A stretch of DNA of 36,140 bases from Burkholderiales bacterium (GCA_035699685.1 DASSPL010000438.1:1-36140); one strand, 5' to 3'; numbered from the stretch's first letter, positions 5,417-27,886 are shown. Translations and numbers: made by a program. Notes: generated from the sequence alone by a model not told the origin.

Positions 5417-7421
<2,005 letters not shown>

Positions 7422-7453
7422 TGTTGCAGCGCGAAACCCACCATTTTAGACGA

Positions 7454-8656
7454 ATGAACGCCCCCCACTCCCCCTCTTTGCTGGCTTCGGTGCCGATGGC
7501 GCCGAGCGATCCGATCCTCGGCGTCACGGAAGCGTTCCACGCCGACCCGAATCCGAAGAAGGTGAACCTCGGCGTGGGCGTCTACTACGACGACAACGGC
7601 AAGGTGCCGCTCCTCGAGTGCGTGCGCCGCGCCGAGGCCGAGCGTCTCAAGGCGGCGCCGCCGCGCGGCTACCTGCCGATCGACGGCCTGGCGGCGTATG
7701 ACCGCGGCGTCCAGCAGCTCGTCTTCGGCAAGGAGGACAAGCGCTTCGTCACCGTCCAGGCCATCGGCGGCACCGGCGGCCTGAAGATCGGCGCCGACTT
7801 CCTCAGGCTCGCCAGCCCGCAATCCGAGGTGTGGATCAGCGACCCGAGCTGGGAAAACCACCGGCAGCTCTTCGAAGCGGCCGGCTTCAAGGTAAAGAGC
7901 TACCCGTACTACGACGCAAGGACGCGCGGCCTCGATTTCGCCGGCATGCGCGACGCGCTCGACCGCGCGCCCGCCGGCACCATCGCCGTGCTGCACGCCT
8001 GTTGCCACAACCCGACAGGCGTCGACCTGAACGCGGCGCAGTGGAAAGAGATCCTCGGCGTCGTCCAGCGCCGCGGCCTCGTTCCTTTCCTCGACCTCGC
8101 CTACCAGGGCTTCGCCGACGGCCTCGACGCCGACGCCTATGCGGCGCGCCTTTTCTCGGAGGCCATGAGCCCGGTGTTCCTGTCGAGCTCGTTCTCGAAG
8201 TCCTTCTCGCTCTATGGCGAGCGCGTCGGCGCCTTCAGCGCCGTCACGGCGAACCCGGAGGAAGCTGCGCGCGTGCTGTCGCAGGTGAAGCGCCTCGTGC
8301 GCACCAACTACTCCAACCCGCCGACGCACGGCAGCCAGCTGGTCGCCGCGGTCCTCGCCTCGGGCGAGCTGCGGGCGCAGTGGGAGCAGGAGCTCGGCGC
8401 CATGCGCGACCGCATCAAGAGCATGCGGCTCGACCTGGTGGCGAAGATCAAGGAGCGCGCGCCGAAAGCCGAATTCGGCCACGTCATCGCCCAGCGCGGC
8501 ATGTTCTCGTATACCGGGCTGACCCGCGAGCAGGTGCAGCGCCTGCGCAAGGAGTATTCGATTTACGCCATCGAGACCGGGCGCATCTGCGTCGCCGCGC
8601 TCAACTCGAAGAACATCGACTACGTCGCCGGGGCCATCGCCGCCGTCATCCAATAG
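7454..8656 (+). CDS. Aspartate/aromatic amino acid aminotransferase (class I, AspC/TyrB type)
   Basis: Motifs are APSDPILGVTEAF, VNLGVGVYYDDNGKVP and the PLP-lysine motif SFSKSFSLYGERVG. I chose ATG 7454. The ORF-track start at 7421 would abut the uvrB start, and ATG 7496 is an alternative. Confidence 0.92.
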   Translation: MNAPHSPSLLASVPMAPSDPILGVTEAFHADPNPKKVNLGVGVYYDDNGKVPLLECVRRAEAERLKAAPPRGYLPIDGLAAYDRGVQQLVFGKEDKRFVTVQAIGGTGGLKIGADFLRLASPQSEVWISDPSWENHRQLFEAAGFKVKSYPYYDARTRGLDFAGMRDALDRAPAGTIAVLHACCHNPTGVDLNAAQWKEILGVVQRRGLVPFLDLAYQGFADGLDADAYAARLFSEAMSPVFLSSSFSKSFSLYGERVGAFSAVTANPEEAARVLSQVKRLVRTNYSNPPTHGSQLVAAVLASGELRAQWEQELGAMRDRIKSMRLDLVAKIKERAPKAEFGHVIAQRGMFSYTGLTREQVQRLRKEYSIYAIETGRICVAALNSKNIDYVAGAIAAVIQ

Positions 8657-9728: not shown

Positions 9729-10412
9729 ATGAGCGCGCAAGTCCTGCTGGCCGACGATGATGCGGAGCTCGGCGCGATGCTGAAGGAGTATCTCGAGCGC
9801 GAGGGCTTCGGCGTCACGGTGGTGCACGACGGCGAGGCGGCCGCGCGCCAGGCGCTTTCCGGCGCGCACCAGATCGTGGTGCTCGACGTGATGATGCCGA
9901 AGCTGGACGGTGTCGAGGCGCTGCGGCGCATCCGCCAGTCGAGCCTGCCGTTTAACCGTATCCCGGTCATCATGCTCACGGCCCGGGGCGACGACGTCGA
10001 CCGTATCCTCGGCCTCGAGCTCGGCGCCGACGACTACGTGCCGAAGCCCTGCACGCCGCGCGAGCTCGTGGCGCGGCTGCGCGCCATCCTGCGCCGCCTG
10101 CAGCCCGCGCCCGGCGCGGGCCCGCTCGAGGTCGGCACCCTCCTCCTGTGGCCGGAGAAGCGCCGCGTCGAGTCGACGGGGCGCGAGATCGAGCTGACCA
10201 GCATCGAGTTCAACATCCTCGAGGTGCTGATGCGCAACGCCGGCCGGCTGGTGAGCAAGAGCGAGATCTCCGAGCAGGCGCTCGGCCGGCCGCTCGCGCG
10301 CTTCGACCGCAGCATCGACGTGCACCTGTCGAGCATCCGCCAGAAGCTCGGCGATGCCGCCAGGCTGATCCGCACGGTGCGCGGCCTCGGCTACCACCTG
10401 GTGAAGGAGTAG
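9729..10412 (+). CDS. cpxR: OmpR-family response regulator, CpxR-like
   Basis: 227 aa. The receiver domain shows LLADDD and LDVMMPKLDG. It shares long blocks with E. coli CpxR (PVIMLTARG, DRILGLELGADDYVPKP, RELVARLRAILRR, FDRSIDVHLSSIRQKL) and has a winged-helix C terminus. Confidence 0.9.
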   Translation: MSAQVLLADDDAELGAMLKEYLEREGFGVTVVHDGEAAARQALSGAHQIVVLDVMMPKLDGVEALRRIRQSSLPFNRIPVIMLTARGDDVDRILGLELGADDYVPKPCTPRELVARLRAILRRLQPAPGAGPLEVGTLLLWPEKRRVESTGREIELTSIEFNILEVLMRNAGRLVSKSEISEQALGRPLARFDRSIDVHLSSIRQKLGDAARLIRTVRGLGYHLVKE

Positions 10413-15774: not shown

Positions 15775-16281
15775 TCAGCAGTGCTTGTTGTGGCCTTTCG
15801 CCCAGCCCTTGCCCTTGTTGTGCTTCTTGCCGCAGTCGTGCGCGACGGCTTGCACCGAACCGCCTTGCGCGGGCTGCGCCGCGACCGTCTGCACGGGCTT
15901 GCCCTGTTGCTTGTTGCCGCCGGCGAGCTCGCGGCCGATCACCGCGCCGGCCGCACCGCCGACGCCGGCGCCGACGATGCCGCCCTTGTCGCCGCCGACC
16001 TGCTGGCCGATTGCCGCACCGGCTGCGCCGCCTGCCGCGCCGCCGACGATCGCGCCGCCCTGGCCCGGGCCGCGCGTGCCGACCGCGGCACCGGCCGCGC
16101 CGCCGACTGCGCCGCCCACCACGCCACCGGTCTTGCCGCCTGCCTTCTGGCCTACTGCGGCTCCCGCCGCGCCGCCGACGCCGCCGCCGATCGCCGTGCC
16201 GACGTTGCTGTCGGCCCACGCCAGCGCCGTGGAAGCGGAGAGAATGACGCCAAGAACAATTCGCTTTGTTTCACTTTTCAT
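15775..16281 (-). CDS. Secreted glycine-zipper repeat protein with Cys-bracketed His/Lys tail
   Basis: I moved the start to ATG at 16281, which has GGAGG 7 nt upstream, giving 168 aa. The signal peptide is MKSETKRIVLGVILSASTALAWA. There are four Gly/Ala-rich repeats of the GGxxGGAAGAAxG type. The C terminus is HDCGKKHNKGKGWAKGHNKHC. Confidence 0.75.
   Translation of the reverse strand: MKSETKRIVLGVILSASTALAWADSNVGTAIGGGVGGAAGAAVGQKAGGKTGGVVGGAVGGAAGAAVGTRGPGQGGAIVGGAAGGAAGAAIGQQVGGDKGGIVGAGVGGAAGAVIGRELAGGNKQQGKPVQTVAAQPAQGGSVQAVAHDCGKKHNKGKGWAKGHNKHC
15907..16194 (-). repeat. Four tandem ~23-25-codon glycine-zipper units (coding repeat)
   Basis: The units are AIGGGVGGAAGAAVGQKAGGKTGG, VVGGAVGGAAGAAVGTRGPGQGG, AIVGGAAGGAAGAAIGQQVGGDKGG and IVGAGVGGAAGAVIGRELAGG. 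Confidence 0.8.
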
Positions 16282-16329
16282 GGAATGCCTCCCGAGCCCG
16301 GATAGTACTCTGGCGAACCTCGACCGGCC

Positions 16330-17621: not shown

Positions 17622-19943
17622 TTGGCGCTAAGGCGGTATCAAGTGGGCGATATCACAAGGCGCCTCGCGGCGGTTGCGTTTGCGGACGTGGCGGGCTGGT
17701 CGCGTCTCATCGAGAAAAGCGACGTAGGCACGCTCCGCGCGTGGAAGGCCGTGCGCGCGGACCTGATCGAACCGAGGCTGCAGGACCACGGCGGGCGCCT
17801 TCTCGAGATCGCCGGCGACGCGGTGCTGGTCGAGTTCCCCAGCGCCGTGGATGCCGTCAAGTGGGCGATCGACGTGCAGCACGGCCTGCGCACCGCGCAG
17901 GAGGCGCACGAGCTCAGCATGCGCATCGGCATCAACGTCGAGGACGTGATCGTCGATGACGGCAAGCTGGTCGGCACCGGCATCAACGTCGCCGCGCGGA
18001 TCCAGCAGCTCGCCGCGCCGGGCGAGATCATCGTGACGGCGGCGGTGCGCGATTATTCCGCCGACCGGCTGGACGCGAGCTTCGTCGACCTCGGCTCGCA
18101 GAAGCTGCGCAATATCAGCCGCCGCGTCCACCTGTACCGTATCGATGTCGGGCGTGCGCGTTCCCGGGACCCGCGAAACGTGGCGCCTCTGCACCCGGAG
18201 CCGGTCGTCCTCGACAGCCAGGAAGAGCGCACCATCCGGGCGGTGCTGCACGTCCAGGTCGCCGATCCGGCCAGCGAGCGCAGCGAAGAAGAATCGATCG
18301 CGCGCTGGCGCGGCCTCGTCGACCGCGTCGCGAACAGCGTCCTGCCGTCGCACGGCGGCCGGCTGCTCAGGAGCCTGGGCGGCGACATGCTGCTCGATTT
18401 CCCCCACGCGCCCGTGGCGCTGAAGGCGGCCTTCGACATCCAGCGCCTCTGCGGCGCGCTGGACCAGCGCATCCTGGTATCGATGGGCATGCAGGTCGGC
18501 GAGCTCATCGCCGACGACCACGGCATTTACGGACGCGACCTCAATCTCGCCGCCGGCCTGACCGAGGTCGCGGGACCCGGTGAAATCGTGGTCTCCGCCG
18601 GCGCGCGCGACCAGCTCACGCCGATGCTCGATGCCGACGTCGAGGACCTGGGCGAATGCTATGTGGGCAGCCTCAAGCAGCCGATCCGGGCTTATCGGGT
18701 CGGACCGCCCGGCCCGCGTCCCGTGGTCGACCCGGCGGCGGCTGTGGAGCTCCGCCCGACGATCGCCGTGGTGCCCTTCGCCGCCCGCACCACCGAAAAG
18801 GAACATCAGGTCATCGGCGAAGTGCTCGCCGACGAAGTGATCTCGGCGTTGTCGCGCAGCGCCGACGTGAACGTCATTTCGCGCCTGTCGACCACGGCCT
18901 TCCGCGGCAGGAACGCGAGCGCGACCGAGGTCGGCCAGCACCTGAACGCCTCCTACGTCCTCTCGGGAGGCTATCGGGTCTCGCGCTCGCACCTTTCGGT
19001 GGTGGCCGAGGTCGCGGACGCGAGCAGCGGCCACATCATCTGGTCCGACGACCTCGCCGGTGATGTCAAGGGGATTATTACCGGCAAGGACGACCTAATA
19101 GATCGCATCGTCACCGCGGCGAGCGCCGCCATAATGGCCCGCGAGTTACAACGTGCTCAATCCCAGGCCCTGCCGACACTCCAGAGCTACACGCTGCTGA
19201 TGGCAGCGATAACCCTCATGCATCGCCTGTCGCCGTCGAGCTTTGATCGCGCGCACGACATGCTCGAGACCCTGTGCGAGCGCGCGCCACGGCAGGCGAT
19301 TCCAAGCGCGTGGCTCGGCAAGTGGCACGTGCTGCGCGTCGAGCAGGGCTGGAGCGACGACATCAACCGCGACGCGCGCATGGCGCTCGATTGCACCCGG
19401 CGCGCGCTCGACGTCGACCCGCATTGCTCGCTCGCGCTGTCGGTGGACGGCTTCATCCACACCAACCTCCTGCGCAAGCTCGACGTCGGCCTGCAGCGCT
19501 ACGACCTGGCGATCCAGGTCAACCCGAACGATTCGCTCGCCTGGCTGCTGAAGGGCATGCTGCATGCCTTCCGCGGCGAAGGCAAACACGCCGTGCGCGG
19601 GACGCAGCGCGCGCTGCGCCTCTCCCCGCTCGATCCGCATCGTTACTTCTACGATTCGCTCGCCGCCTCCGCGGCCCTGTCGGCGGCCGATTACAAGGGA
19701 GCGATCGACCTCGCGCGCCGTTCGCTGCGTGCCAATCGCACCCATACGTCCACCCTGCGGGTCATGGCGATCGCGCAGTGGCAGCTCGGCCGGCACAAGG
19801 AGGCGCGCGACACCGTGCACGACCTGATGACGCTGCAGCCGTCGCTCACGGTCAGCCGCTGGCTCGAGCGCTCGCCGAGCAGCGAATACGAGATAGGCAA
19901 GCTTTGCGCGCGTTCGCTGCAGGAGGCCGGCGTGCCGCGCTGA
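17622..19943 (+). CDS. Tandem class III adenylate/guanylate cyclase-domain protein with a central TolB-N-like module and C-terminal TPR region
   Basis: 773 aa. CHD1 covers ~aa 15-175 (VAFADVAGWS, EIAGDAVLVEF, GTGINVAARI). CHD2 covers ~aa 205-360 and is degenerate (VQVADPAS, SLGGDMLLDF, RDLNLAAGL). It continues with IAVVPFAAR...VISRLST...YVLSGGY and then TPR-like helical repeats to the C terminus. The start is TTG 17622, or GTG 17643 as an alternative. Confidence 0.85.
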   Translation: MALRRYQVGDITRRLAAVAFADVAGWSRLIEKSDVGTLRAWKAVRADLIEPRLQDHGGRLLEIAGDAVLVEFPSAVDAVKWAIDVQHGLRTAQEAHELSMRIGINVEDVIVDDGKLVGTGINVAARIQQLAAPGEIIVTAAVRDYSADRLDASFVDLGSQKLRNISRRVHLYRIDVGRARSRDPRNVAPLHPEPVVLDSQEERTIRAVLHVQVADPASERSEEESIARWRGLVDRVANSVLPSHGGRLLRSLGGDMLLDFPHAPVALKAAFDIQRLCGALDQRILVSMGMQVGELIADDHGIYGRDLNLAAGLTEVAGPGEIVVSAGARDQLTPMLDADVEDLGECYVGSLKQPIRAYRVGPPGPRPVVDPAAAVELRPTIAVVPFAARTTEKEHQVIGEVLADEVISALSRSADVNVISRLSTTAFRGRNASATEVGQHLNASYVLSGGYRVSRSHLSVVAEVADASSGHIIWSDDLAGDVKGIITGKDDLIDRIVTAASAAIMARELQRAQSQALPTLQSYTLLMAAITLMHRLSPSSFDRAHDMLETLCERAPRQAIPSAWLGKWHVLRVEQGWSDDINRDARMALDCTRRALDVDPHCSLALSVDGFIHTNLLRKLDVGLQRYDLAIQVNPNDSLAWLLKGMLHAFRGEGKHAVRGTQRALRLSPLDPHRYFYDSLAASAALSAADYKGAIDLARRSLRANRTHTSTLRVMAIAQWQLGRHKEARDTVHDLMTLQPSLTVSRWLERSPSSEYEIGKLCARSLQEAGVPR

Positions 19944-19971
19944 TCAACGGGTTCATAACCGAGGGGGAGCA

Positions 19972-21171
19972 ATGAGTGTCGAGGGGGGCTTCGGCGGGTT
20001 CGGAGGATTTGGCGGGTTCGGTGGGTTCGGTGGCTTCGGCGGGTTCGGCGGATTTGGCGGCTTCGGCGGCTTCGGCGGATTTGGCGGCTTCGGAGGGTTT
20101 GGCGGCTTCGGCCCCCAGCCCGGCTACGCACCCGATGCGCTGATCACCCACCGCGACGGCATCGTCGGGGGCTGGGTGCCACCGACGCACGATGGCGTAC
20201 CGGTGGCGCTCAAGCAGGAGCACGACGATCCGCTCGCCAACCTCGCCCGCTGGGAGCCTTGGGTACGAGCAGCGGCGCTGGATTTCGAAGTGGTGTCGCA
20301 CCTGCATTTCGGCGCCGGGCAGGACGAATCGAAGACCTACAACGGCTACACCCTCTGGCACCTGGATCGAACCGCGATTCCGGGAACCGTCACGCCACGG
20401 CCTATCGCGCGCATGGTCCGGCCGCCGGACCTGTCGGCCGGCAACGATTTCTGGATCAAGCAGCTCGAGATCGTCGCGAACTACGCCGATCTGCGCGAAG
20501 ACCGGGCGAGCGAGGTGCTGACGCAGGTCACCCCGCCCATCGTCTACTGGGCGTCGGTGATGAACCTGCAGCCGCACACCAAGAAGTACACGCTCGAGCT
20601 TCTGGGCCTCGCCTTGCGCTTCGCCACGTTCGCGGAGATGCGCTTCAAGCACGCCCTCGCCGTGCGCAGGCCGGCCGAGATGTCGGCGCAGATCCAGCCG
20701 ATGATCGGCACCCCGGGCCATGGCGCGCTTCCCAGCGGGCACGCCACCGAGGCGCACATCGTCGCGTATGTGCTGTGGAACCTCGCGTCGGCCGCGGACA
20801 GCACGAAGAAGAAGAACAATGTGTGGCTGGAGCAGCTCATGCGCCAGGCTTCGCGCATTGCAGTGAATCGCACGGTCGCCGGCGTGCACTTCCCGGTCGA
20901 CAGCTCGGCGGGGCAGCTCCTGGGCCTGACGCTCGGCGAGTACCTGCTGCACCTTTGCGGCGTCGGCAGCAAGTACAAGGCATGGGAGTTCCTCGGCCCG
21001 AAGTTCACCGCCACGGACGATTTCGACTGGCGCGCGCAGTACGACACGGCGATGCCCAGTCCCGCGCGCAAGGCCACGGCCTTCGCCGTCGAAATCCCGG
21101 GTAATCAGACGGCCACCAAGTCTGTGATGCTCGAATGGCTGTGGGACCAGGCGAAGAAGGAGTGGCCGTGA
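19972..21171 (+). CDS. (GGF)x14-repeat protein with a PAP2 acid phosphatase / vanadium-haloperoxidase-like catalytic domain; no signal peptide or TM segment
   Basis: 399 aa, ATG after GAGGGGGAG. After MSVE come 14 perfect GGF triplets. The PAP2 superfamily motifs appear in order: K226-HALAVR-R233-P234 (KX6RP), P254-S-G-H257 (PSGH) and R300-TVAGV-H306-FPV-D310 (RX3GXHX3D). Confidence 0.75.
   Translation: MSVEGGFGGFGGFGGFGGFGGFGGFGGFGGFGGFGGFGGFGGFGGFGPQPGYAPDALITHRDGIVGGWVPPTHDGVPVALKQEHDDPLANLARWEPWVRAAALDFEVVSHLHFGAGQDESKTYNGYTLWHLDRTAIPGTVTPRPIARMVRPPDLSAGNDFWIKQLEIVANYADLREDRASEVLTQVTPPIVYWASVMNLQPHTKKYTLELLGLALRFATFAEMRFKHALAVRRPAEMSAQIQPMIGTPGHGALPSGHATEAHIVAYVLWNLASAADSTKKKNNVWLEQLMRQASRIAVNRTVAGVHFPVDSSAGQLLGLTLGEYLLHLCGVGSKYKAWEFLGPKFTATDDFDWRAQYDTAMPSPARKATAFAVEIPGNQTATKSVMLEWLWDQAKKEWP
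19984..20109 (+). repeat. 14 tandem 9-nt units encoding Gly-Gly-Phe (in-frame coding microsatellite-like array)
   Basis: I read it unit by unit. All 14 units translate to GGF. The units differ only at synonymous third positions (ggc/ggg/gga/ggt; ttc/ttt). A 23-nt stretch is identical at 20044-20066 and 20071-20093, a 27-nt offset. Confidence 0.95.
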
Positions 21172-23270
21172 AGGGCGGGTGGTCGAAATCCAAGCCGCCG
21201 CGGCGCGACCGCAAGCTGTTCGACCCCTACTACGACTGGGCCGTCAGCACGGGCTTCGCCTACTACGGCAAGCCCGACTGGGTCCCGGTGATCATCGAGC
21301 TCGAGAAAGACGTGCCGGCCTTTCTCGAGCGGGTCCGCACGCAGCGCTGGGGCAGCGCGATGCGCATCCCGAAGATCTACAGGAATCCGCCCAGACGGCT
21401 GAAGAAGAAGCTCAAGTTCCTCACGGCGATGGTGGAACGCGCCCGCCTGCCCGAGCTGCTCGACGCCGGCGCGGTAAACATCGACATCAAGCGCATGGAG
21501 ATCGGGCGCATGGTCGATGTGCCCAGCGGCCCGCACCTTACGCAGGAGGGAACCGGGTGGGGAGACCTGAACCTCGAGCTGCCCAACCCGCCCTTTCCGG
21601 CCGGCACGGTGCTGATCGGCGTGATCGACGACAGCATCGCCTTCGCCCACGAGCGCTTCAGGACCGGGACGAGCACGCGGATCTGGTATTTCTGGGATCA
21701 GCAAGTGCCTTCCGATGATTCGGGGCGATGGGACTACGGGCGTGAGATCCGCAAGGAGACGATGCCTGACGGCATCGACGATCTCCTCGGCCGGTGCAAG
21801 CATGGCGAGGTCATCGACGAGGACGAGGTTTACCGCAAGGCGGGACACCTCAATTTCGCCGACAGCGGCCACAAGCCGCTCGCGCTGCGCGGCTCGCATG
21901 GCACGCACGTCGCCGACCTCGCGTGCAACCCGCCGGTCGGCGAGGGGCCGATCGTCGCGGTGCAGCTGCCGATCGCCACGACCGAGGACACCTCGGGTGC
22001 GACATTGAAGCCGCAGGCCTTCGATGCCCTGCTCTACATGCTCGATTGCGCCGACCAGCACAGCGGCAAGGACCCGCTGCCGCTCGTCGTCAACCTGAGC
22101 TACGGCATGTACGCCGGTCCGCACGATGGCCAGGGGCTTCTCGAGCAGGCCATCGACCACCTGCTCGATTCATGCAACACCGGCTCCAAGACGCCGGTTC
22201 TGCAGGTCGTGCTGCCGGCCGGCAACAGCCACCTGCTGCGCTGCCATGCCGCCTTCTCGCTCGACGCCAAGGCGAAGGCGCCGGTGCCGGAAGAAGAGGA
22301 TCCGTCGATCCGGCTACTGCACTGGCGAGTGCTGCCGGATGACCGCACCGAGAGCTTCCTCGAGATCTGGTATCCGGAAAACCGTGCCAATGACCTCGCG
22401 GCGAGCGTGACGGCGCCGACCGGTCTCGCCACCGGCTGGTTCGATCTCAACACCAGTTTCGAGTGGCAAGACGCAGCCGGACGCGTCATGGGCCAGATCC
22501 AGTTCTATCCTCCACCCCTCGGCAGCAAGCGCGGCGTCATCCGCATCGCGCTCGCACCGACGGCAGGACGGGGCGGGTCCCTGACCGGAGTTCCATCGGG
22601 AATCTGGCAGGTGCGGGTCGAAAACCGCGGGGCGAGCGCGATCGCCGACATCGACGCATGGATCCAGCGCGACGATACGGTGCACGGCTATCGGCGTGGC
22701 GCGAGGCAGTCCTATTTCGACGATCCGGAGTACGCCCGATTCGACCCGGGTGGCCGTCCCATCGAGGACGACAACCACCTCGCTACGAAGGACAGCTACG
22801 TCAAGCGTCAAGGCACTTTCAATGCCATCTCCTCGGGTACGAAAAGCATCGTCGCATCAGGGTTGATCCGGCAGAACTGGAAACCGAGCCCATACTCGGC
22901 TTCCGGCCCCCTATACCCGCCCGGCCGCGATGTGCCCAACAAGAAGGGGCCCGAGGTGATGGCCGGCTCGGATGACAGTCCTTCCCACAACGGCATCCTG
23001 GCAGCCGGTTCGCGCAGCGGGTCGTGCGTGGCCATGCGCGGCACGAGCGTCGCCGCACCCCAGGTGGCGCGGCTCGTAGCGCAGAACATCGCGGGCGGAG
23101 GAAAGGGCGACCGCTTCGCCGCGGCGGATTTTCCCAAGGCGGTGGTGGCTCATCCCGACTACACCGAAAAGGCGCCGCCCCCGGGCGCGGCGGCAGCGCC
23201 GTCTCTGGAACGCGGCGGCCTTGGGCGCGTCGATTACCAGCCGCCGCGCAAGCCGCGCTTCGAGCGCTAG
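21168..23270 (+). CDS. S8 (subtilisin-like) serine peptidase, apparently cytoplasmic, with large insertions
   Basis: GTG 21168 lies 5 nt after AAGGAG (21157-21162) and overlaps the upstream TGA (GTGA). The ORF-track ATG 21135 is an alternative. The catalytic motifs are GVIDDSIAF (Asp), GSHGTHVADLA (His), LPAGNSH (oxyanion Asn) and RGTSVAAPQVA (Ser). There is no N-terminal signal peptide. Confidence 0.88.
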   Translation: MKGGWSKSKPPRRDRKLFDPYYDWAVSTGFAYYGKPDWVPVIIELEKDVPAFLERVRTQRWGSAMRIPKIYRNPPRRLKKKLKFLTAMVERARLPELLDAGAVNIDIKRMEIGRMVDVPSGPHLTQEGTGWGDLNLELPNPPFPAGTVLIGVIDDSIAFAHERFRTGTSTRIWYFWDQQVPSDDSGRWDYGREIRKETMPDGIDDLLGRCKHGEVIDEDEVYRKAGHLNFADSGHKPLALRGSHGTHVADLACNPPVGEGPIVAVQLPIATTEDTSGATLKPQAFDALLYMLDCADQHSGKDPLPLVVNLSYGMYAGPHDGQGLLEQAIDHLLDSCNTGSKTPVLQVVLPAGNSHLLRCHAAFSLDAKAKAPVPEEEDPSIRLLHWRVLPDDRTESFLEIWYPENRANDLAASVTAPTGLATGWFDLNTSFEWQDAAGRVMGQIQFYPPPLGSKRGVIRIALAPTAGRGGSLTGVPSGIWQVRVENRGASAIADIDAWIQRDDTVHGYRRGARQSYFDDPEYARFDPGGRPIEDDNHLATKDSYVKRQGTFNAISSGTKSIVASGLIRQNWKPSPYSASGPLYPPGRDVPNKKGPEVMAGSDDSPSHNGILAAGSRSGSCVAMRGTSVAAPQVARLVAQNIAGGGKGDRFAAADFPKAVVAHPDYTEKAPPPGAAAAPSLERGGLGRVDYQPPRKPRFER

Positions 23271-23983
23271 CGGCCGAGCGCCTTCTTCTTCCAGACCTCC
23301 CACGGCCGCTCGAGCGTGCCGGCGTTCGCCGCGGTCGAGCGGCGGCCCTCCTCGTCGCTCAGGAACTCGATCGGCCCCTCGAGCTGCATCGCCTGCATCT
23401 GCAGCCGGGCGTTCATCTCGGTGTAGATGCTCCTGAACACCGCTTCCTGCACGCTGGCGCCGATCACGGTCATGCCGTGGCCGCGCATCAGCACGCAGTT
23501 GCACTTGCCGAGCGCGCCGGCGAGCGCTTCGCCGAGCGGCCGGTCGCGCACCAGGACGTCGTTCTCCTCGCGCACCTTGCGGATGTCCCACACCGGCACG
23601 CCCGACCAGAGGAAGGAGCCCATGTGGTACACCGGGCGCAGCTTGCTCTTCGTCACGCCGAAGGGAATGACCGAAGGCGAGTGGCTGTGCACCACGGCCG
23701 TCACGTCGGGCCGCTTGCGGTAGATCTCGCCGTGGATGTAGCGCTCGATGAAGCCCTTGCGCTTGTCGCCGGTGGCGGCCTCGCTGTCCGCGTTCCATTC
23801 GACCAGGTCGGCGGCGGTGACCAGGGCCGGCGCGCGCGAGCGCGACATGATGAAGTGCGCCGGCCGCTTGTCGCTGCGCGCGCTGATGTGGCCGTAGGCG
23901 TCGAGCACGCCGTGGTCGGCGAGGATGCGGCTGCCGGCGACGAGGTCGTCGATGAGCTGCCTGCTTGCTGCGGGTTTCTTCAT
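23267..23983 (-). CDS. Class II aldolase/adducin-domain protein
   Basis: I moved the start to ATG at 23983 (MKKPAAS...), giving 238 aa. Motifs are DAYGHISAR, TAVVHSHSPSVIPF and LMRGHGMTVIG. Its stop shares the CTAG tetranucleotide with the convergent S8 gene's stop. Confidence 0.87.
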   Translation of the reverse strand: MKKPAASRQLIDDLVAGSRILADHGVLDAYGHISARSDKRPAHFIMSRSRAPALVTAADLVEWNADSEAATGDKRKGFIERYIHGEIYRKRPDVTAVVHSHSPSVIPFGVTKSKLRPVYHMGSFLWSGVPVWDIRKVREENDVLVRDRPLGEALAGALGKCNCVLMRGHGMTVIGASVQEAVFRSIYTEMNARLQMQAMQLEGPIEFLSDEEGRRSTAANAGTLERPWEVWKKKALGR

Positions 23984-25092
23984 TTGATGCGCATCTCCCT
24001 GAGTTGCGGTGCAACGAAATAAAGCACGCCGACGGCGGCGAGCGAGACCAGCGCGAGCGTCGTGGACGCGCCGCGCACGCCGAGCAGGTCCGACAGCGGC
24101 CCGGCGAGAAAGGCGCCGGTCGAGATCATCGCCGGATACATCATCGTCAGGCTGGCGATGCGGCCGCGCATGTCCTCGGGCGCGCACATCTGCAGCGTCG
24201 CCATGTTGCTCGCGGTATGCGCCATCTCGGCGGCGCCGCCGATGAAGCCGAAGGCCAGCGCCGCGGCGATGCTCGGGCTCGCGGCCAGGCCGACGATGGA
24301 CAGCGCCATCAGCACGATCCAGCCCGACTGGATGAGGGCCTGGCGCTCGGCCCGCACCAGGGCGTTGGCGATGAACCCGCCCAGCGTGCCGCCGAGGCCG
24401 ACCGCCGTGAGCAGCATGCCGAGACCCTGGGGCCCGGCGAGGAACTCATCCTTCGCATAGATCGGGAACAGCGTCCCCCAGACCGGCACGAGCAGCAGGT
24501 AGGGCAGCGCGCCGATGGTTATGAGGATGCGCATGCGGGGGTCGCGCGCGGCGAAGCGCAGGCCCTCCAGCATGTCGGCCATCGCCGTGCGGCCGCTCGG
24601 CGCGCGCGGCGGCGGGAAAGCCACCGCCAGCACGAGGAGCGCGGCCGAGCCGTACAGCACGCCCTGGATGAGGAAGGAGCCCGCGGCGCCGAACCAGGCG
24701 ATGAGGTAGCCGGCGATCGCCGGGCCGATGATGCGCATCATCGAGAAGCCGATGGTGTTCAGCGCGACCGCCTTCATCGCCACGTCGCGCGGCACGAGCT
24801 CGAACACGGTGCTGAAGCGCGCCGGCCGGTCCATCACGTTCGCCGCGCCCATCAGCAGCGTGAAGGCGAACAGCATCCACGTGCTGACCATGCCCAGCGC
24901 GAGCGCGATGCCGATCGCGAACGACACGCTCGCGGCGAGGAGCTGGCTCGCCTGCAGCAGCCGCCGGCGGTTGAAGCGGTCGGCGGCCACGCCGGAGATC
25001 GGCGCGAGGAGGAGCAGCGGAAGCACCCTCACGCCCATCACCGCGCCGAGCAGCGCGCCCGACCCGGTGATCTCGTAGACCACCCAGCCCAT
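23980..25092 (-). CDS. MFS transporter (EntS/MFS_3-like). The annotated ATG probably truncates TM1; the coding sequence likely extends to 25182
   Basis: 370 aa from ATG 25092. The in-frame upstream 30 codons encode LASALAYPQFRRLWTSSLCSWLAQWIQQAS. That looks like the conserved N-terminal FRxLW/TM1 segment of this family, and it runs straight up to the TAA of the upstream gene. See the findings. Confidence 0.82.
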   Translation of the reverse strand: MGWVVYEITGSGALLGAVMGVRVLPLLLLAPISGVAADRFNRRRLLQASQLLAASVSFAIGIALALGMVSTWMLFAFTLLMGAANVMDRPARFSTVFELVPRDVAMKAVALNTIGFSMMRIIGPAIAGYLIAWFGAAGSFLIQGVLYGSAALLVLAVAFPPPRAPSGRTAMADMLEGLRFAARDPRMRILITIGALPYLLLVPVWGTLFPIYAKDEFLAGPQGLGMLLTAVGLGGTLGGFIANALVRAERQALIQSGWIVLMALSIVGLAASPSIAAALAFGFIGGAAEMAHTASNMATLQMCAPEDMRGRIASLTMMYPAMISTGAFLAGPLSDLLGVRGASTTLALVSLAAVGVLYFVAPQLREMRIK

Positions 25093-25182
25093 CGAGGCCT
25101 GCTGGATCCACTGCGCCAGCCACGAGCAGAGCGAGCTCGTCCACAGCCGCCGGAACTGGGGATAGGCGAGCGCCGACGCCAG

Positions 25183-26940
25183 TTATCTTCTCGATGCGGA
25201 CGGAGGGGTGCCGCCCATCGCGGCGTCGTAGCCCGGCAGCACGCGCACGTCGATGACGCACACGGCGCCTTTTCTCACCTGCTCCATCCCCTGCTGGATC
25301 GCCGGCTTGAGGTCCTTCAGCTCCTTCACCGGCCCGATGCCGACCGCGCCCTGGGCGCGCGCCATCATCGCGAGGTCGATGTCGGGCTCGTCGATGCGCT
25401 GGCCGATCCACTTGTTCTCGACCGGCCGGCCGCGCTCCTTCGCCACGCGCTCCTGGTGCATCTCGTCGTTGTAGAAGGAGCGGTTGTTGGCCACGATCAC
25501 CAGGCACGGCAGCTTGTAATGCGTCGCCGTCCAGAGCGCCGTGTTGCCCATCAGGAAATCGCCGTCGCCGACGATGCCGACGACCATGCGGCTCGTTCCC
25601 TTGAGCGCCAGCGCCGCGCCGACGGTCAGGCCCGGCCCCGCCCCTACGCCGCCGCCGCCGTCGGCGCCGAGGTAATCGAGCGGATGGCGGAAATGGCGAT
25701 AGGCGCCGTTCCAGCCGAGCGGCAGCTTGGAGATGCACACGTCCGTGCCGGCGGTGAGCTCATTGAAGGCCTTGGCGAGCGCGCGAATCGAAACCGCGTT
25801 GTCCTCGGGCCAGTGGGTTTCATGCTTGGGTTGCACCGCGGCGGGCCGCGCCTTCACGGCATCGAGCAGCATCGGCACCGCGACATCCGGCTCGCACATC
25901 ATGTACACGTCGCCCGGCGGCAGGCCCTGGTAGTCGGCGCTCCAGCCGCGGTGGAGGTGGGCGTCGGTCGATACGCGGATCACCCTGGCGCCGATCGGCG
26001 CATCGCCCCACGCCGCCTTCAGCGTGCCGGCGGTATCCACCCAGTCGAGCGAAAGGATGACGTCGCAGTCGCGCAGGAGCTTCCCGTCCGGGAACGTCGC
26101 CGGCGGCGCGGCGTGCAGCGGATGGTCGGTCGGGAATGCAGCCGGGGTCTTGATGTCGGTGAATACCTTCGCCTGCAGCTTCTCGGCGAGCGCGACACGC
26201 GTCTTCCAGCCTTCCATGCTGCGGCTCACGCGGCCGGCGAGGATCGCCGGGTTCCTGGCCGTGGAGAGCAACTGCGCGGCGGCCCTTACGGTTTCCGCTT
26301 GAGGCACTACCGGATCCGGTGCCTTGAAGCGCGAGACGTCCGGCACCGGCGGCAGCGGGCCGATCTTCTGTTCCTGCAGGGCTGCATCCAGGTTGATGTA
26401 CGTCGGCCCGCGCGGCGCGGTGTTCGCCATCTGCACCGCGCGCAGCAGCGCTTCGTACGCCGCGGGCACCGATGCCGGCTGGTTGTCCCACTTCGTGTAG
26501 TCGCGCACCAGCGCGCCCTGGTCGGAGGCGGTATGAATCCAGTCGATCCACGGCCGGCGGCGCGCCGCGTCCCACGGGCCGGTGGCGCCGAGGATCAGCA
26601 TCGGCACACGATCGCACCACGCGTTGAAGATGGCCATCGAGCCGTGCATCAGGCCGACGTTGGAGTGCAGCACCGCGCCCATCATCTTGCCGGAGGCCTT
26701 GGCATAGCCGTGTGCGATGGCGATCGCCGATTCCTCGTGCAGGCAGAGCAGCATCTGCGGCCGCTCGTTGCCGAGGTAGTTGACGATGCTGTCGTGCAGC
26801 CCGCGGTAGCTGGCGCCCGGGTTGAGCGCGAGGTACGGTATGTCGAGCGCGCGCAGCATGGCGGCGATCGCGTCGCTGCCCCAGTGCTCCTTCGCCTCCG
26901 GCACCGGCGCCGGGACGTCCCTCAGGATTTCACTCGGCAC
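25183..26940 (-). CDS. Thiamine diphosphate-dependent enzyme (acetolactate synthase large subunit / benzoylformate decarboxylase-like)
   Basis: 585 aa. The N-terminal Pyr domain shows HEESAIAIAHGYAKASG (catalytic Glu). The C-terminal ThDP motif is GDGDFLM...VIVANN (GDG-X-NN). Confidence 0.92.
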   Translation of the reverse strand: MPSEILRDVPAPVPEAKEHWGSDAIAAMLRALDIPYLALNPGASYRGLHDSIVNYLGNERPQMLLCLHEESAIAIAHGYAKASGKMMGAVLHSNVGLMHGSMAIFNAWCDRVPMLILGATGPWDAARRRPWIDWIHTASDQGALVRDYTKWDNQPASVPAAYEALLRAVQMANTAPRGPTYINLDAALQEQKIGPLPPVPDVSRFKAPDPVVPQAETVRAAAQLLSTARNPAILAGRVSRSMEGWKTRVALAEKLQAKVFTDIKTPAAFPTDHPLHAAPPATFPDGKLLRDCDVILSLDWVDTAGTLKAAWGDAPIGARVIRVSTDAHLHRGWSADYQGLPPGDVYMMCEPDVAVPMLLDAVKARPAAVQPKHETHWPEDNAVSIRALAKAFNELTAGTDVCISKLPLGWNGAYRHFRHPLDYLGADGGGGVGAGPGLTVGAALALKGTSRMVVGIVGDGDFLMGNTALWTATHYKLPCLVIVANNRSFYNDEMHQERVAKERGRPVENKWIGQRIDEPDIDLAMMARAQGAVGIGPVKELKDLKPAIQQGMEQVRKGAVCVIDVRVLPGYDAAMGGTPPSASRR

Positions 26941-27886
26941 GGATGTTGGCCTCCTTGATCACCTTGCCCCACTTCTCGTGCTCGGCGCGGATGAAGCGCG
27001 CGAACTCCTCGGGCGAATTGGTGACGAGCTCGATGCCTTGCGGCGCCAGCTTCGCCCTGACATCCGGCAACGCGAGGACGCGCGCGATCTCGCCGTTCAC
27101 CTTCTTCACGATGTCGGCCGGCGCCCTCGCCGGCATGAAGACGCCGAGCCAGGGATCGACCGAGAAGCCCGGCAGCGTCTCGCCGATGGCCGGCGTGCTG
27201 CCGAGATTGGCGAAGCGCTGCGGCGCGGTGCTGCCCAGGAGCTTGAGCTTGCCGTCCTTGATGTGCGGCAGCAGCGAGTTGGCGGCGCCGATCCACACCT
27301 GGATGCGCCCCGGCAGCAGGTCCTGGATGGCGGGCGCCGCTCCCTTGTAGGGCACGTGGTTCATCCGGATGCCGCCGAGGAGCTGCAGCATCGCCGCGGA
27401 GAGATGTTGCGGGCTGCCATTGCCGGAAGAGCCGAAGTTGAGCTCGTTCGGGCGCGCCCTGGCGTACGCGACCAGCTCCTGCACCGAGTTCACCGGCACC
27501 GAGGAAGGCACGACCAGGAGGAACTGGATGCGCGCCACCTGCGTCACCGGCAGCAGGTCGGTGAAGGGATCGTAGGTGGTCGCTTTCGCGATGTACGGGT
27601 TGGTGACGTAGACGTTGTCCGGCGCGAGCAGCCACGTGTATCCGTCGGGCGCGCTCTTCGCGACGGCGTCGGAGCCGATGTTCTGGCTGCCGCCGGTGCG
27701 GTTCTCCACCACCACGGGCTGCTTCCACGATTCCTGGATGTTCGACGCGAGCGTGCGCGCGATCGTGTCCGGCGAGCCGCCCGGCGGCAGCGGCACGATG
27801 ATCTTGATCGGCCGGTCCGGGAAACCCTGGGCAGCGGCGAACGACGAGACAAGCGCGGCAAACGCCGCAATCAGCCACCGATTCAC
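26930..27886 (-). CDS. Bug-family (TctC-like) tripartite tricarboxylate transporter substrate-binding protein
   Basis: 318 aa with signal peptide MNRWLIAAFAALVSSFAAAQG. The hallmark FPDRPIKIIVPLPPGGSPD and ENRTGGSQNIG follow. It overlaps the downstream ThDP-enzyme start by 11 nt. Confidence 0.92.
   Translation of the reverse strand: MNRWLIAAFAALVSSFAAAQGFPDRPIKIIVPLPPGGSPDTIARTLASNIQESWKQPVVVENRTGGSQNIGSDAVAKSAPDGYTWLLAPDNVYVTNPYIAKATTYDPFTDLLPVTQVARIQFLLVVPSSVPVNSVQELVAYARARPNELNFGSSGNGSPQHLSAAMLQLLGGIRMNHVPYKGAAPAIQDLLPGRIQVWIGAANSLLPHIKDGKLKLLGSTAPQRFANLGSTPAIGETLPGFSVDPWLGVFMPARAPADIVKKVNGEIARVLALPDVRAKLAPQGIELVTNSPEEFARFIRAEHEKWGKVIKEANIRAE

Follow-up and report, generated by a model that had tools for sequence, protein, structure and literature searches.

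Co-variation of a peptide repeat tail with a tetratricopeptide repeat array suggests a new cytoplasmic signalling switch in Proteobacteria

Introduction

RRNPP systems (Rap-Phr, NprR-NprX, PlcR-PapR, PrgX and AimR-AimP) are found in Firmicutes and in their phages. In the pairs Rap-Phr, PlcR-PapR and AimR-AimP, a receptor made of tetratricopeptide repeats (TPR) is encoded next to the gene of its peptide, and the two co-vary in a lineage-specific manner. Subtilases mature the Phr peptides. Here, we analyse a module of three genes, encoding a TPR-containing transducer, a PAP2 protein and an S8 subtilase, in a stretch of DNA of 36,140 nucleotides from a Burkholderiales bacterium (GCA_035699685.1 DASSPL010000438.1:1-36140; the whole stretch is hereafter called the window, and positions are counted from its first letter). 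The PAP2 protein carries a tail made of a short repeated peptide, and the repeat unit co-evolves with residues on the ligand face of the transducer's last TPRs. This co-evolution suggests a new cytoplasmic signalling switch.

Other described systems resemble parts of the module. In co-crystals of the TPRs of Hop, the peptide is contacted by positions 2, 5, 6, 9, 12 and 13 of the repeat (PMC1261162). The subtilase CspB is a dedicated activator that removes the pro-region of one partner protein and keeps its own prodomain (PMC3567191). Kaur et al. (2020, PMC7159879) surveyed other conflict systems containing cyclases and peptidases; the present module is absent from that survey, the closest large one. 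A previous reading of the window, made from the sequence alone, had proposed that the PAP2 and S8 genes may work as a unit. The two are indeed co-located in every locus that we examined, but the unit has three genes and the transducer gene upstream had been missed.

Results

A conserved module of three genes

The transducer gene of the window (17622..19943, plus strand, 773 amino acids (aa)) ends 28 nucleotides (nt) before the PAP2 gene, an open reading frame (ORF) at 19972..21171 on the plus strand that encodes a class A acid-phosphatase-like protein of 399 aa with an N-terminal repeat tail. The ORF of the Csp-like S8 subtilase follows (21168..23270, plus strand, GTG start, 700 aa). In 84 genomic loci, we located the flanking module genes with tblastn. 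Wherever the flanks exist, the order transducer, PAP2, S8 is kept on one strand, and the transducer gene is conserved as strictly as the pair. Alsobacter, one Nitrobacteraceae genome and a metagenome contig that is syntenic with the window all show this order. Among 80 metagenome loci, 69 have the S8 gene downstream of PAP2, the remainder being mostly short contigs. The pairwise distance matrices of the three proteins gave r = 0.73-0.87. In a survey with one genome per species, relatives of the PAP2 protein are present in at least 531 species, most of them Alpha- or Betaproteobacteria, with a single Myxococcota genome, and the module lies on at least 480 metagenome contigs. Its hosts include Bradyrhizobium, Microvirga, Paraburkholderia, Phaeobacter and Roseibium.

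Our full-text literature searches turned up no account of these three genes together or of the repeat. No NCBIfam family scored above its cut-off for the module proteins, and no model of PADLOC-DB v2 matched PAP2. The previous claim that the pair matches no described system thus agrees with what PADLOC, NCBIfam and the literature gave. The database labels of the three genes are generic ('PAP2 family', 'S8 peptidase' or 'hypothetical', 'cyclase' or 'winged helix'). We conclude that the three-gene unit is real, widespread and undescribed.

In the window, the PAP2 and S8 genes share a GTGA overlap: the GTG start (21168-21170) and the TGA stop (21169-21171) are on the plus strand, and AAGGAG lies 5 nt before the GTG (21157-21162). 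We recovered this arrangement at 21157-21171 as it had been reported from the sequence. The public gene call (P0121) is an identical S8 protein of 700 aa with the same GTG start. The overlap is not family-wide, since the called gaps in other loci are 9, 33 and 47 nt; the adjacency of PAP2 and S8, unlike the overlap, is conserved.

The tail repeats a peptide, not a DNA motif

The tail of the window's PAP2 protein is (GGF)14, at aa 5-46 (19984..20109, plus strand, by translation), within a segment (aa 1-51) that is disordered in the AlphaFold2 model. The 'GGF tail' mentioned in the sequence-only reading exists and is the key feature, with the correction that it occupies the N-terminus. To survey the tail, we translated in every locus the frame upstream of the conserved motif ALIxxRDGIVGxW. 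Each locus encodes a short N-terminus followed by 8-25 copies of one short unit. The repeat tail is universal in the homologues and its unit is lineage-specific. Genome units with two glycines are GGF, GGA, GGV, GGL, GGI, GGY and GGH; others are GAA, GAF, GVS, GHS, GAS, GMS, GIS, GLS, GFS, GYS, GSL, GIN, GFE, GYE, SSL, DAN and AHN. Units that are not tripeptides also occur in genomes: a hexamer, GGQGAY (locus L059), and a tetramer, AGFS (locus L064). The metagenomes and Phaeobacter added GGM, GGT, TGI, GAT, SGW, NGV, AGL, AGF and NSF.

The repeat must be translated, because the ATG at 19972 is the sole in-frame start upstream of ALIxxRDGIVGxW in the window and thus the only one that keeps this motif. 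Public gene calls often begin PAP2 downstream of the repeat (P0044, P0083 and P0030 in L001, L002 and L003, respectively). As a consequence, the tail is missing from many database entries and part of the family looks 'tail-less'.

Codon usage within the arrays indicates that selection on the repeat acts at the level of the peptide. The (GGF)14 of the window is perfect as a peptide and is encoded by 8 different 9-mers, and the 14 LGG units of L040 are 14 different 9-mers. Serine is encoded by AGY and by TCN inside one array. Over 73 arrays, 96% of the 2505 repeat codons encode the periodic consensus residue. Pairs of units differ at 63-70% of third codon positions and at 2-19% of the other six positions, and the codon differences are synonymous in 8647 cases against 979 non-synonymous ones. 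This synonymous scrambling excludes a repeat that works at the DNA level, such as a contingency locus or a regulatory element. Downstream of the repeats, an S-P-L linker is conserved, with the proline present in 60 of 77 sequences.

A separate observation concerns Microvirga (L018, L024, L028, L030, L031, L032, L037 and L039, where the repeat lies upstream of position 10001). Closely related species have the flanks and much of the wobble pattern in common, and yet their whole arrays are GGV, GGI or GGL. Between GGV and GGI the flanks are near-identical and the wobble pattern is partly common to the GGV species; in L024, one GGV unit remains among the GGI units. This suggests that the switch occurred by parallel first-position substitutions in every unit, and not by re-expansion of one of them.

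The repeat unit co-varies with the end of the TPR array

We derived the TPR register from the coordinates given by Pfam and from three consensus residues (G/A8, A20 and P32); it places TPRs at aa 638-671, 675-708 and 709-742 of the transducer. The last two, together with the C-terminal helices (aa 743-773), make up the proposed tail-binding site (19644..19940, plus strand). Mutual information with the repeat unit nominated transducer columns 649, 680, 683, 714, 717, 747, 758, 762 and 763. Mutual information is confounded by phylogeny and was used solely to nominate columns. When laid out on the tree, the nominated pattern recurs in separate clades. Units of the Ala type pair with Y747, T758, W762 and S763 in Bradyrhizobium, Paraburkholderia, L003 and L076. 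The window, the nearest relative of L003 and L076, combines GGF with W747, I758, C762 and A763. In Microvirga, GGV pairs with I717 and GGI with V717.

We then used Fitch parsimony to identify columns that change on the same branches as the key residue of the unit. S683, W747 and S765 came top of 1331 columns in this branch co-change test, which controls for phylogeny. The segment aa 675-773 contains 13 of the 20 top rate-matched columns (p = 1e-9), and its co-change fraction is 0.32, compared with 0.16-0.21 elsewhere.

Two rules were fixed on the genomic set (76 systems) and tested on 51 non-redundant new systems taken from the 80 metagenome loci. According to the first, Y747 is present in exactly those systems whose key residue is A, H or N; 50 of the 51 obey it (Fisher exact test, p = 1e-13). 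The second links W762 in the same way to the key residues A, V and I, and 49 of 51 obey it (p = 2e-11). The new systems also paired I717 with GGV or SGV (6/6) and V717 with GGI (2/2). All three systems with a Trp unit have S756, where the other 48 have Y or F, and they also have Ile or Val at 762. Size compensation is visible in these pairings. In the combined set of 124 systems, with a tree of the PAP2 domain only and 414 columns, L766 (1.2e-6), W747 (2.5e-5) and I717 (8e-5) pass the Bonferroni correction.

The co-varying residues occupy equivalent places in consecutive repeats. In one helix A, residues 680, 683, 686 and 687 take positions 6, 9, 12 and 13; in the helix A that follows, residues 714, 717 and 721 take positions 6, 9 and 13. 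Six of the nine best columns of the two TPRs sit on the peptide-contacting positions of Hop (p = 5e-4). The system with the tetrapeptide unit, L064 (a metagenome-assembled genome (MAG) of Burkholderiaceae), has T649, F680, A683, D688, M714 and T717 and is unusual at nearly all co-varying positions, as expected if its groove had been re-tooled for another period.

Two other comparisons were set aside. Sister-pair contrasts gave a noisy ranking, because pairs with a switch of unit are more divergent than pairs without one (0.32 versus 0.22), and the branch co-change test was used instead. The split between F-unit and L-unit systems of Rhodobacteraceae is not independent evidence: the two systems with an L unit are apparently sister taxa, and many columns partition with them.

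The transducer has a constant body and a swappable output

The transducer is composed of class III cyclase domains, a TolB-N/FlgO-like domain and the TPR array (Pfam Guanylate_cyc and TPR families, with a weak FlgO match). Most members of the family have one cyclase domain, in whose consensus none of the six canonical residues of an adenylate cyclase (D, K, D, D, N and R) is missing. In the window and its close relatives, this ancestral domain (aa 196-375 in the window; 18207..18746, plus strand, placed by alignment) is degenerate: the metal-binding Asp is replaced by Gln, GD by GG and Arg by Gly, so that both metal Asp and the Arg are lost. An extra class III cyclase domain precedes it (aa 8-190; 17643..18191, plus strand; PDB 3mr7, E = 2e-34). 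It keeps the metal-binding D22 and D66 and the Asn/Arg pair, with E and K, and not K and D, at the specificity positions. This extra domain is present only in the window, L003/L004, L005, L007 and L010.

On plasmids of Phaeobacter and in seven further systems of Rhodobacteraceae, the N-terminus of the transducer is an OmpR-type winged helix (Trans_reg_C, E = 5e-14); RefSeq names the Phaeobacter protein GAL_RS20220 'winged helix-turn-helix domain-containing protein'. A decayed cyclase-like region comes next, and then the TolB-like and TPR body, which is 40% identical to that of the window over aa 311-772. Going by these domain assignments, the output domain of the transducer is swappable. A constant sensor body with alternative, dimer-dependent outputs is a hallmark of a signal transducer.

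Two observations on the transducer stand apart from this. A Pro-rich linker, GPPGPRPVV, lies between the cyclase and TolB-like domains (19943-19972 and transducer aa ~360-372) and is present in many homologues; it is another candidate for a protease site or a hinge. A Roseibium MAG (L035, 13449-15329, plus strand) has a second cyclase/TolB-like/TPR gene just downstream of S8. We rejected it as a part of the module, as its own PAP2 and S8 partners are missing, and regard it as a generic paralogue of a large family.

The PAP2 protein resembles soluble class A acid phosphatases

The three catalytic motifs of PAP2 enzymes are K226-X6-R233-P234, P254-S255-G256-H257 and R300-X3-G304-x-H306-X3-D310 (20647..20901, plus strand). 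They follow the order of the superfamily (KX6RP, PSGH, SRX5HX3D), and the third opens with N299 and not with Ser. Their residues are mostly invariant in alignments of 22 and 66 sequences, with P234 and S255 nearly invariant in the larger one. The Pfam PAP2 profile (PF01569) matches with E = 2e-8 and 34.5 bits, against a gathering threshold of 27.2. The three-motif signature that had been read from the sequence is therefore all there in the window and is invariant or nearly so among homologues.

The AlphaFold2 model (predicted local distance difference test score (pLDDT) 83.9) has a helical core and a small extra beta-sheet subdomain, with strands in aa 111-149 and 335-379. The best structural matches found by Foldseek are soluble class A acid phosphatases (7f17, PhoN and PhoC), with template modelling (TM) scores of 0.69-0.71; the score for 7f17 is 0.69, with a root-mean-square deviation of 2.5 Å. 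The vanadium haloperoxidases 4cit and 4usz match less well (TM 0.31-0.33, E ~1e-3). Of the proposed PAP2/haloperoxidase likeness, the PAP2 fold thus stands and the haloperoxidase side is weak.

We also tested if residue 246 of the active-site loop tracks the repeat unit. It splits GGV from GGI in Microvirga and shows no general association (p = 0.18). Separately, the C-terminal ends of the PAP2 protein (21130-21168; LxWLWxxAxxEW) and of the S8 protein (23200-23267; RGGxGRxxxxPxxRxPRxER) are conserved, and either tail could be a further docking motif.

The S8 subtilase resembles Csp proteases

The catalytic residues D154, H244, N353 and S627 of the subtilase are invariant in 69 sequences, and Peptidase_S8 (PF00082) matches with E = 8e-8 and 32.3 bits against a cut-off of 21.8; the Asp, His, Asn and Ser motifs seen in the sequence were thus recovered by both. 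Its AlphaFold2 model (pLDDT 85.6) shows an alpha/beta prodomain-like region (aa 1-120), a disordered junction (aa 125-135) and a subtilase core with a jelly-roll/beta insert at aa ~360-500. By far the best structural matches are the clostridial germination subtilases CspB, CspC and CspA (4i0w, 6mw4 and 9pr8; E = 1e-17 to 2e-22). The match to 4i0w has E = 2e-22 and TM 0.71 in Foldseek, and the sequence search agrees on Csp. Orthology with CspBA is not supported, at 32.8 bits against a cut-off of 1250 (NCBIfam NF040809), and we found no SleC-like gene near the module in the examined neighbourhoods. A precomputed PF22778 label of some homologues was not reproduced by the Pfam profiles and was not used.

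S8 pocket residues show no clean co-variation with the repeat unit. For example, S354, next to the oxyanion Asn, gave a co-change p = 1e-3, and the distribution of its residues by unit is not clean. As a consequence, cleavage inside the repeat is not supported, and any substrate of S8 is a guess. The earlier suggestion that the protease could act on the GGF tail is still plausible. The idea that S8 is a tripeptidyl-peptidase removing N-terminal tripeptides singly was rejected, since the tetrapeptide unit of L064 argues against it as a general rule.

Two loci with the same PAP2 protein (P0030) differ in this gene. An intact S8 gene of 672 aa comes next in L003 (9015-11034). In L004, two ORFs of 309 and 313 aa take its place (5483-7501), the result of a frameshift, of an assembly error or of decay of the protease into a pseudogene.

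By the crude Kyte-Doolittle test, the three proteins show neither a hydrophobic N-terminus nor a stretch resembling a membrane span (maximum 19-residue mean of 1.12-1.27 over the three). The PAP2 N-terminus, MSVE(GGF)14, contains no hydrophobic segment (maximum 1.12) and, by the same crude test, does not qualify as a class A signal peptide. This bears out, to the extent that the test allows, the absence of signal peptides and hydrophobic spans proposed before for PAP2 and S8. Both proteins look cytosolic and catalytically competent.

Genomic context

The flanks of the module vary by genus and contain transport and metabolic genes, including ATP-binding cassette (ABC) transporters and dehydrogenases. 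Those of the window encode two major facilitator superfamily (MFS) transporters, a class II aldolase, a thiamine pyrophosphate (TPP) enzyme, TctC and a dehydrogenase. The G+C content is unremarkable. Some copies of the module are on plasmids or chromids (Phaeobacter, Rhizobium, Paraburkholderia, Caballeronia and Roseibium).

The window also contains very long antisense or out-of-frame ORFs over real genes, e.g. 23965-26958 (plus strand) and 17628-19034 (minus strand). Such overlapping ORFs are typical of DNA with 65-75% G+C and are no evidence of genes. At 15778-16320 (minus strand), inside a spurious ORF call of 431 aa, lies a small protein with a signal-peptide-like N-terminus (MKSETKRIVLGVILSASTALAWA), Gly-zipper motifs and a C-terminus rich in His, Lys and Cys; it matches Pfam Gly-zipper_Omp and Rick_17kDa_Anti (E ~1e-7).

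Discussion

A model of the module

Our computations establish a conserved unit with intact active sites, selection on the peptide, co-evolution of the repeat unit with the TPRs and swappable outputs. We propose that these features reflect a three-component cytoplasmic signalling system, and give this composite model, in which all functional statements come from computation, a probability of about 0.4. Its best-supported part is the binding of the repeat tail by the TPR array, which we consider very probable. The disordered repeat tail of PAP2 would be held by the C-terminal TPR array of the transducer, each TPR taking up about one tripeptide unit and the variable residue lying in equivalent pockets of the concave face. 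An extended or polyproline II tripeptide is about 9-10 Å long, near the TPR rise of about 9 Å, and this match of lengths suggests one unit per TPR. Designed repeat proteins bind tripeptide-repeat peptides through superhelical matching, following the same length principle (PMC10115654).

A tail of 8-25 units could line up two or more transducer molecules. Such pairing would favour a dimer-dependent output, i.e. the class III cyclase in most lineages or, in Rhodobacteraceae, the OmpR-type winged helix, and the output would be cyclic AMP (cAMP) or transcription. The Csp-like S8, made together with the phosphatase, would most likely cut the tail at the conserved linker after the repeats. The S-P-L linker is the obvious candidate site, and the cut would resemble the removal of the pro-region of pro-SleC by CspB. 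Removal of the tail would irreversibly switch the complex and free or activate the phosphatase, which may be the controlled effector or the sensory input. Physical binding, oligomerization, the substrates of S8 and of the phosphatase and the direction of signalling are all points that we infer.

The most specific form of this proposal is a natural 'repeat reads repeat' code, which we put forward tentatively and do not favour over its negation. In it, consecutive TPRs would each read one unit of the tail, and the code would be re-written lineage by lineage through matched changes in the pockets. The multivalent tail would dimerise the transducer for cAMP synthesis or DNA binding, and the Csp-like protease would be the irreversible on- or off-switch.

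Several observations weigh against the model. The hexapeptide of L059 and the tetrapeptide of L064 misfit a strict geometry of one tripeptide per TPR. The window's linker has three residues fewer than the consensus and no S-P-L, and the pocket of S8 does not follow the unit. As residue 246 does not track the unit either, the role given to the PAP2 domain is tentative. The nucleotide product in the window is uncertain, given the decayed ancestral cyclase domain and the E/K pair of the added one. It is also important to highlight that the co-change statistics rely on a tree built by the unweighted pair group method with arithmetic mean (UPGMA) and on parsimony, and are approximate.

Alternative explanations

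The TPR array, the adjacent repeat gene and their co-variation parallel RRNPP systems, which makes an RRNPP-like scheme the main rival. In such a scheme, S8 would chop the tail into short units, the free peptides would switch the TPR receptor, and PAP2 would be a multi-copy precursor. We consider this unlikely, although several of our results could be read this way. A TPR receptor, a neighbouring gene encoding the peptide and lineage-specific co-variation of the two are what one finds in Rap-Phr, PlcR-PapR and AimR-AimP, and a protease is encoded in the operon. An endoprotease that cuts between units would tolerate the tetrapeptides of L064 and the hexapeptides of L059, and the concentration of the co-varying residues in about three repeats suits a short ligand. 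However, the S8 pocket residues do not track the unit's variable residue. As signal peptide and exporter are both lacking, it is hard to see how the peptides would pass between cells, and a conserved, catalytically intact enzyme of 350 aa kept as a mere carrier is hard to explain. As for membership of the RRNPP group itself, the repeat protein has no export signal, no conserved exporter or Opp genes lie beside the module, and a Pfam scan of the module matched no RRNPP-specific profile. The specificity residues of the TPRs do co-vary with the peptide of the adjacent gene, which is a functional resemblance and not homology.

The sequence-only reading had compared the layout of the pair with conflict and defence systems. 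A protease-gated defence or abortive infection system, in which the cyclase/TPR protein senses an invader and S8 activates a toxic PAP2 by removing its tail, is in our view improbable. All three proteins are signal-less enzymes in a tight operon with a hypervariable repeat unit, the spread over Alpha- and Betaproteobacteria is patchy with plasmid or chromid copies in some genera, and PADLOC gave weak matches of the cyclase to PycC (1.6e-4, cyclase domain only) and of S8 to IetS (E = 0.0066). These matches leave out PAP2 and are at the level of single domains. The neighbours are metabolic (MFS, aldolase, TPP enzyme, TctC, ABC and dehydrogenase genes), with no defence or mobile genes, and no relatives were found in IMG/VR viral contigs. 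The variability is matched within the operon, between tail and TPR, and does not point outward. The DNA-binding output of Rhodobacteraceae also fits regulation better than suicide. With these neighbours, and with no viral contig and no PADLOC model matched, the defence framing is left without support.

The tail might also be a self-assembling or low-complexity element, such as a polyglycine-II or collagen-like helix, an amyloid-like zipper or a driver of condensates, its co-variation with the TPRs being indirect. Most units have Gly at every third residue, the GGY, GGF and GGX composition is reminiscent of FUS and silk, and the tail has no fixed structure in the monomer model. The existence of units free of Gly (SSL, DAN and AHN) speaks against it, and co-variation that compensates for size on the ligand face of the TPRs is hard to explain without contact. 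We judge this explanation to be quite improbable. Tandem core repeats next to a subtilase recall the fungal dikaritin precursors, whose tandem cores are cut by the subtilase Kex2, and the transducer has weak NCBIfam matches to a peptide modification system cyclase (TIGR04510) and a TOMM kinase/cyclase (TIGR03903), yet we regard as highly improbable a pathway for a ribosomally synthesized and post-translationally modified peptide. In such a pathway, the tail would be a precursor with many cores, joined to the enzyme that modifies it as borosin precursors are; S8 would release it, and the cyclase/TPR protein would be the regulator. The NCBIfam matches reach 21.9 of 400 and 33.4 of 705.75 bits, there is no evident target for modification in GGA, GAA, GGV and similar units, no other conserved tailoring enzyme or exporter lies nearby, and the phosphatase fold is not known to have a peptide-tailoring role.

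Implications and comparison with known systems

A true 'repeat reads repeat' code would amount to a new class of insulated cytoplasmic signalling in Proteobacteria. If the signalling model holds, the module would be the first peptide-TPR receptor signalling of its kind in this phylum and a natural counterpart of designed pairs of repeat proteins and repeat peptides, with dozens of orthogonal specificities for synthetic biology. It would also give Csp-type subtilases a role beyond spore germination, and provide a striking case of concerted amino-acid change across whole arrays without homogenisation of the DNA.

Like RRNPP systems, it has a cytoplasmic TPR receptor with an output domain, encoded next to a co-diversifying peptide gene. 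It differs in presenting the peptide as an array of 8-25 units on the N-terminus of an enzyme that has no signal peptide, in its occurrence in Proteobacteria, in the class III cyclase or OmpR-type winged-helix output, and in the dedicated cytosolic protease of the operon. With Pycsar (PycC) and IetAS (IetS) it has domain types in common, a class III-type cyclase and an S8 peptidase, respectively; these are weak domain matches only, and the module has no Pycsar-type effector, no IetA ATPase and no defence-island context.

The window's PAP2 protein has all three signature motifs and the helical-bundle core of class A acid phosphatases (PhoN, PhoC and 7f17 of P. aeruginosa). Class A enzymes are periplasmic and have a signal peptide, whereas this protein has none and, unlike them, carries the extra beta-sheet subdomain and the N-terminal repeat tail. 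The S8 protein structurally resembles the Csp subtilases in its prodomain-like N-terminal domain and jelly-roll insertion. It is 14-19% identical to them, its hosts are non-sporulating Proteobacteria, and its partner is a PAP2 protein, not a cortex hydrolase.

The co-varying residues at helix-A positions 6, 9, 12 and 13 correspond to the ligand face of Hop TPR1 and TPR2A bound to EEVD (PMC1261162). As in designed repeat binders (PMC10115654), equivalent positions in consecutive TPRs track one residue of a tripeptide. The difference from both is that tail and TPR of the module are putative partners, paired on the grounds of co-evolution, and that units other than tripeptides exist. Overall, the parts belong to known superfamilies, and the system as a whole is unlike any described one.

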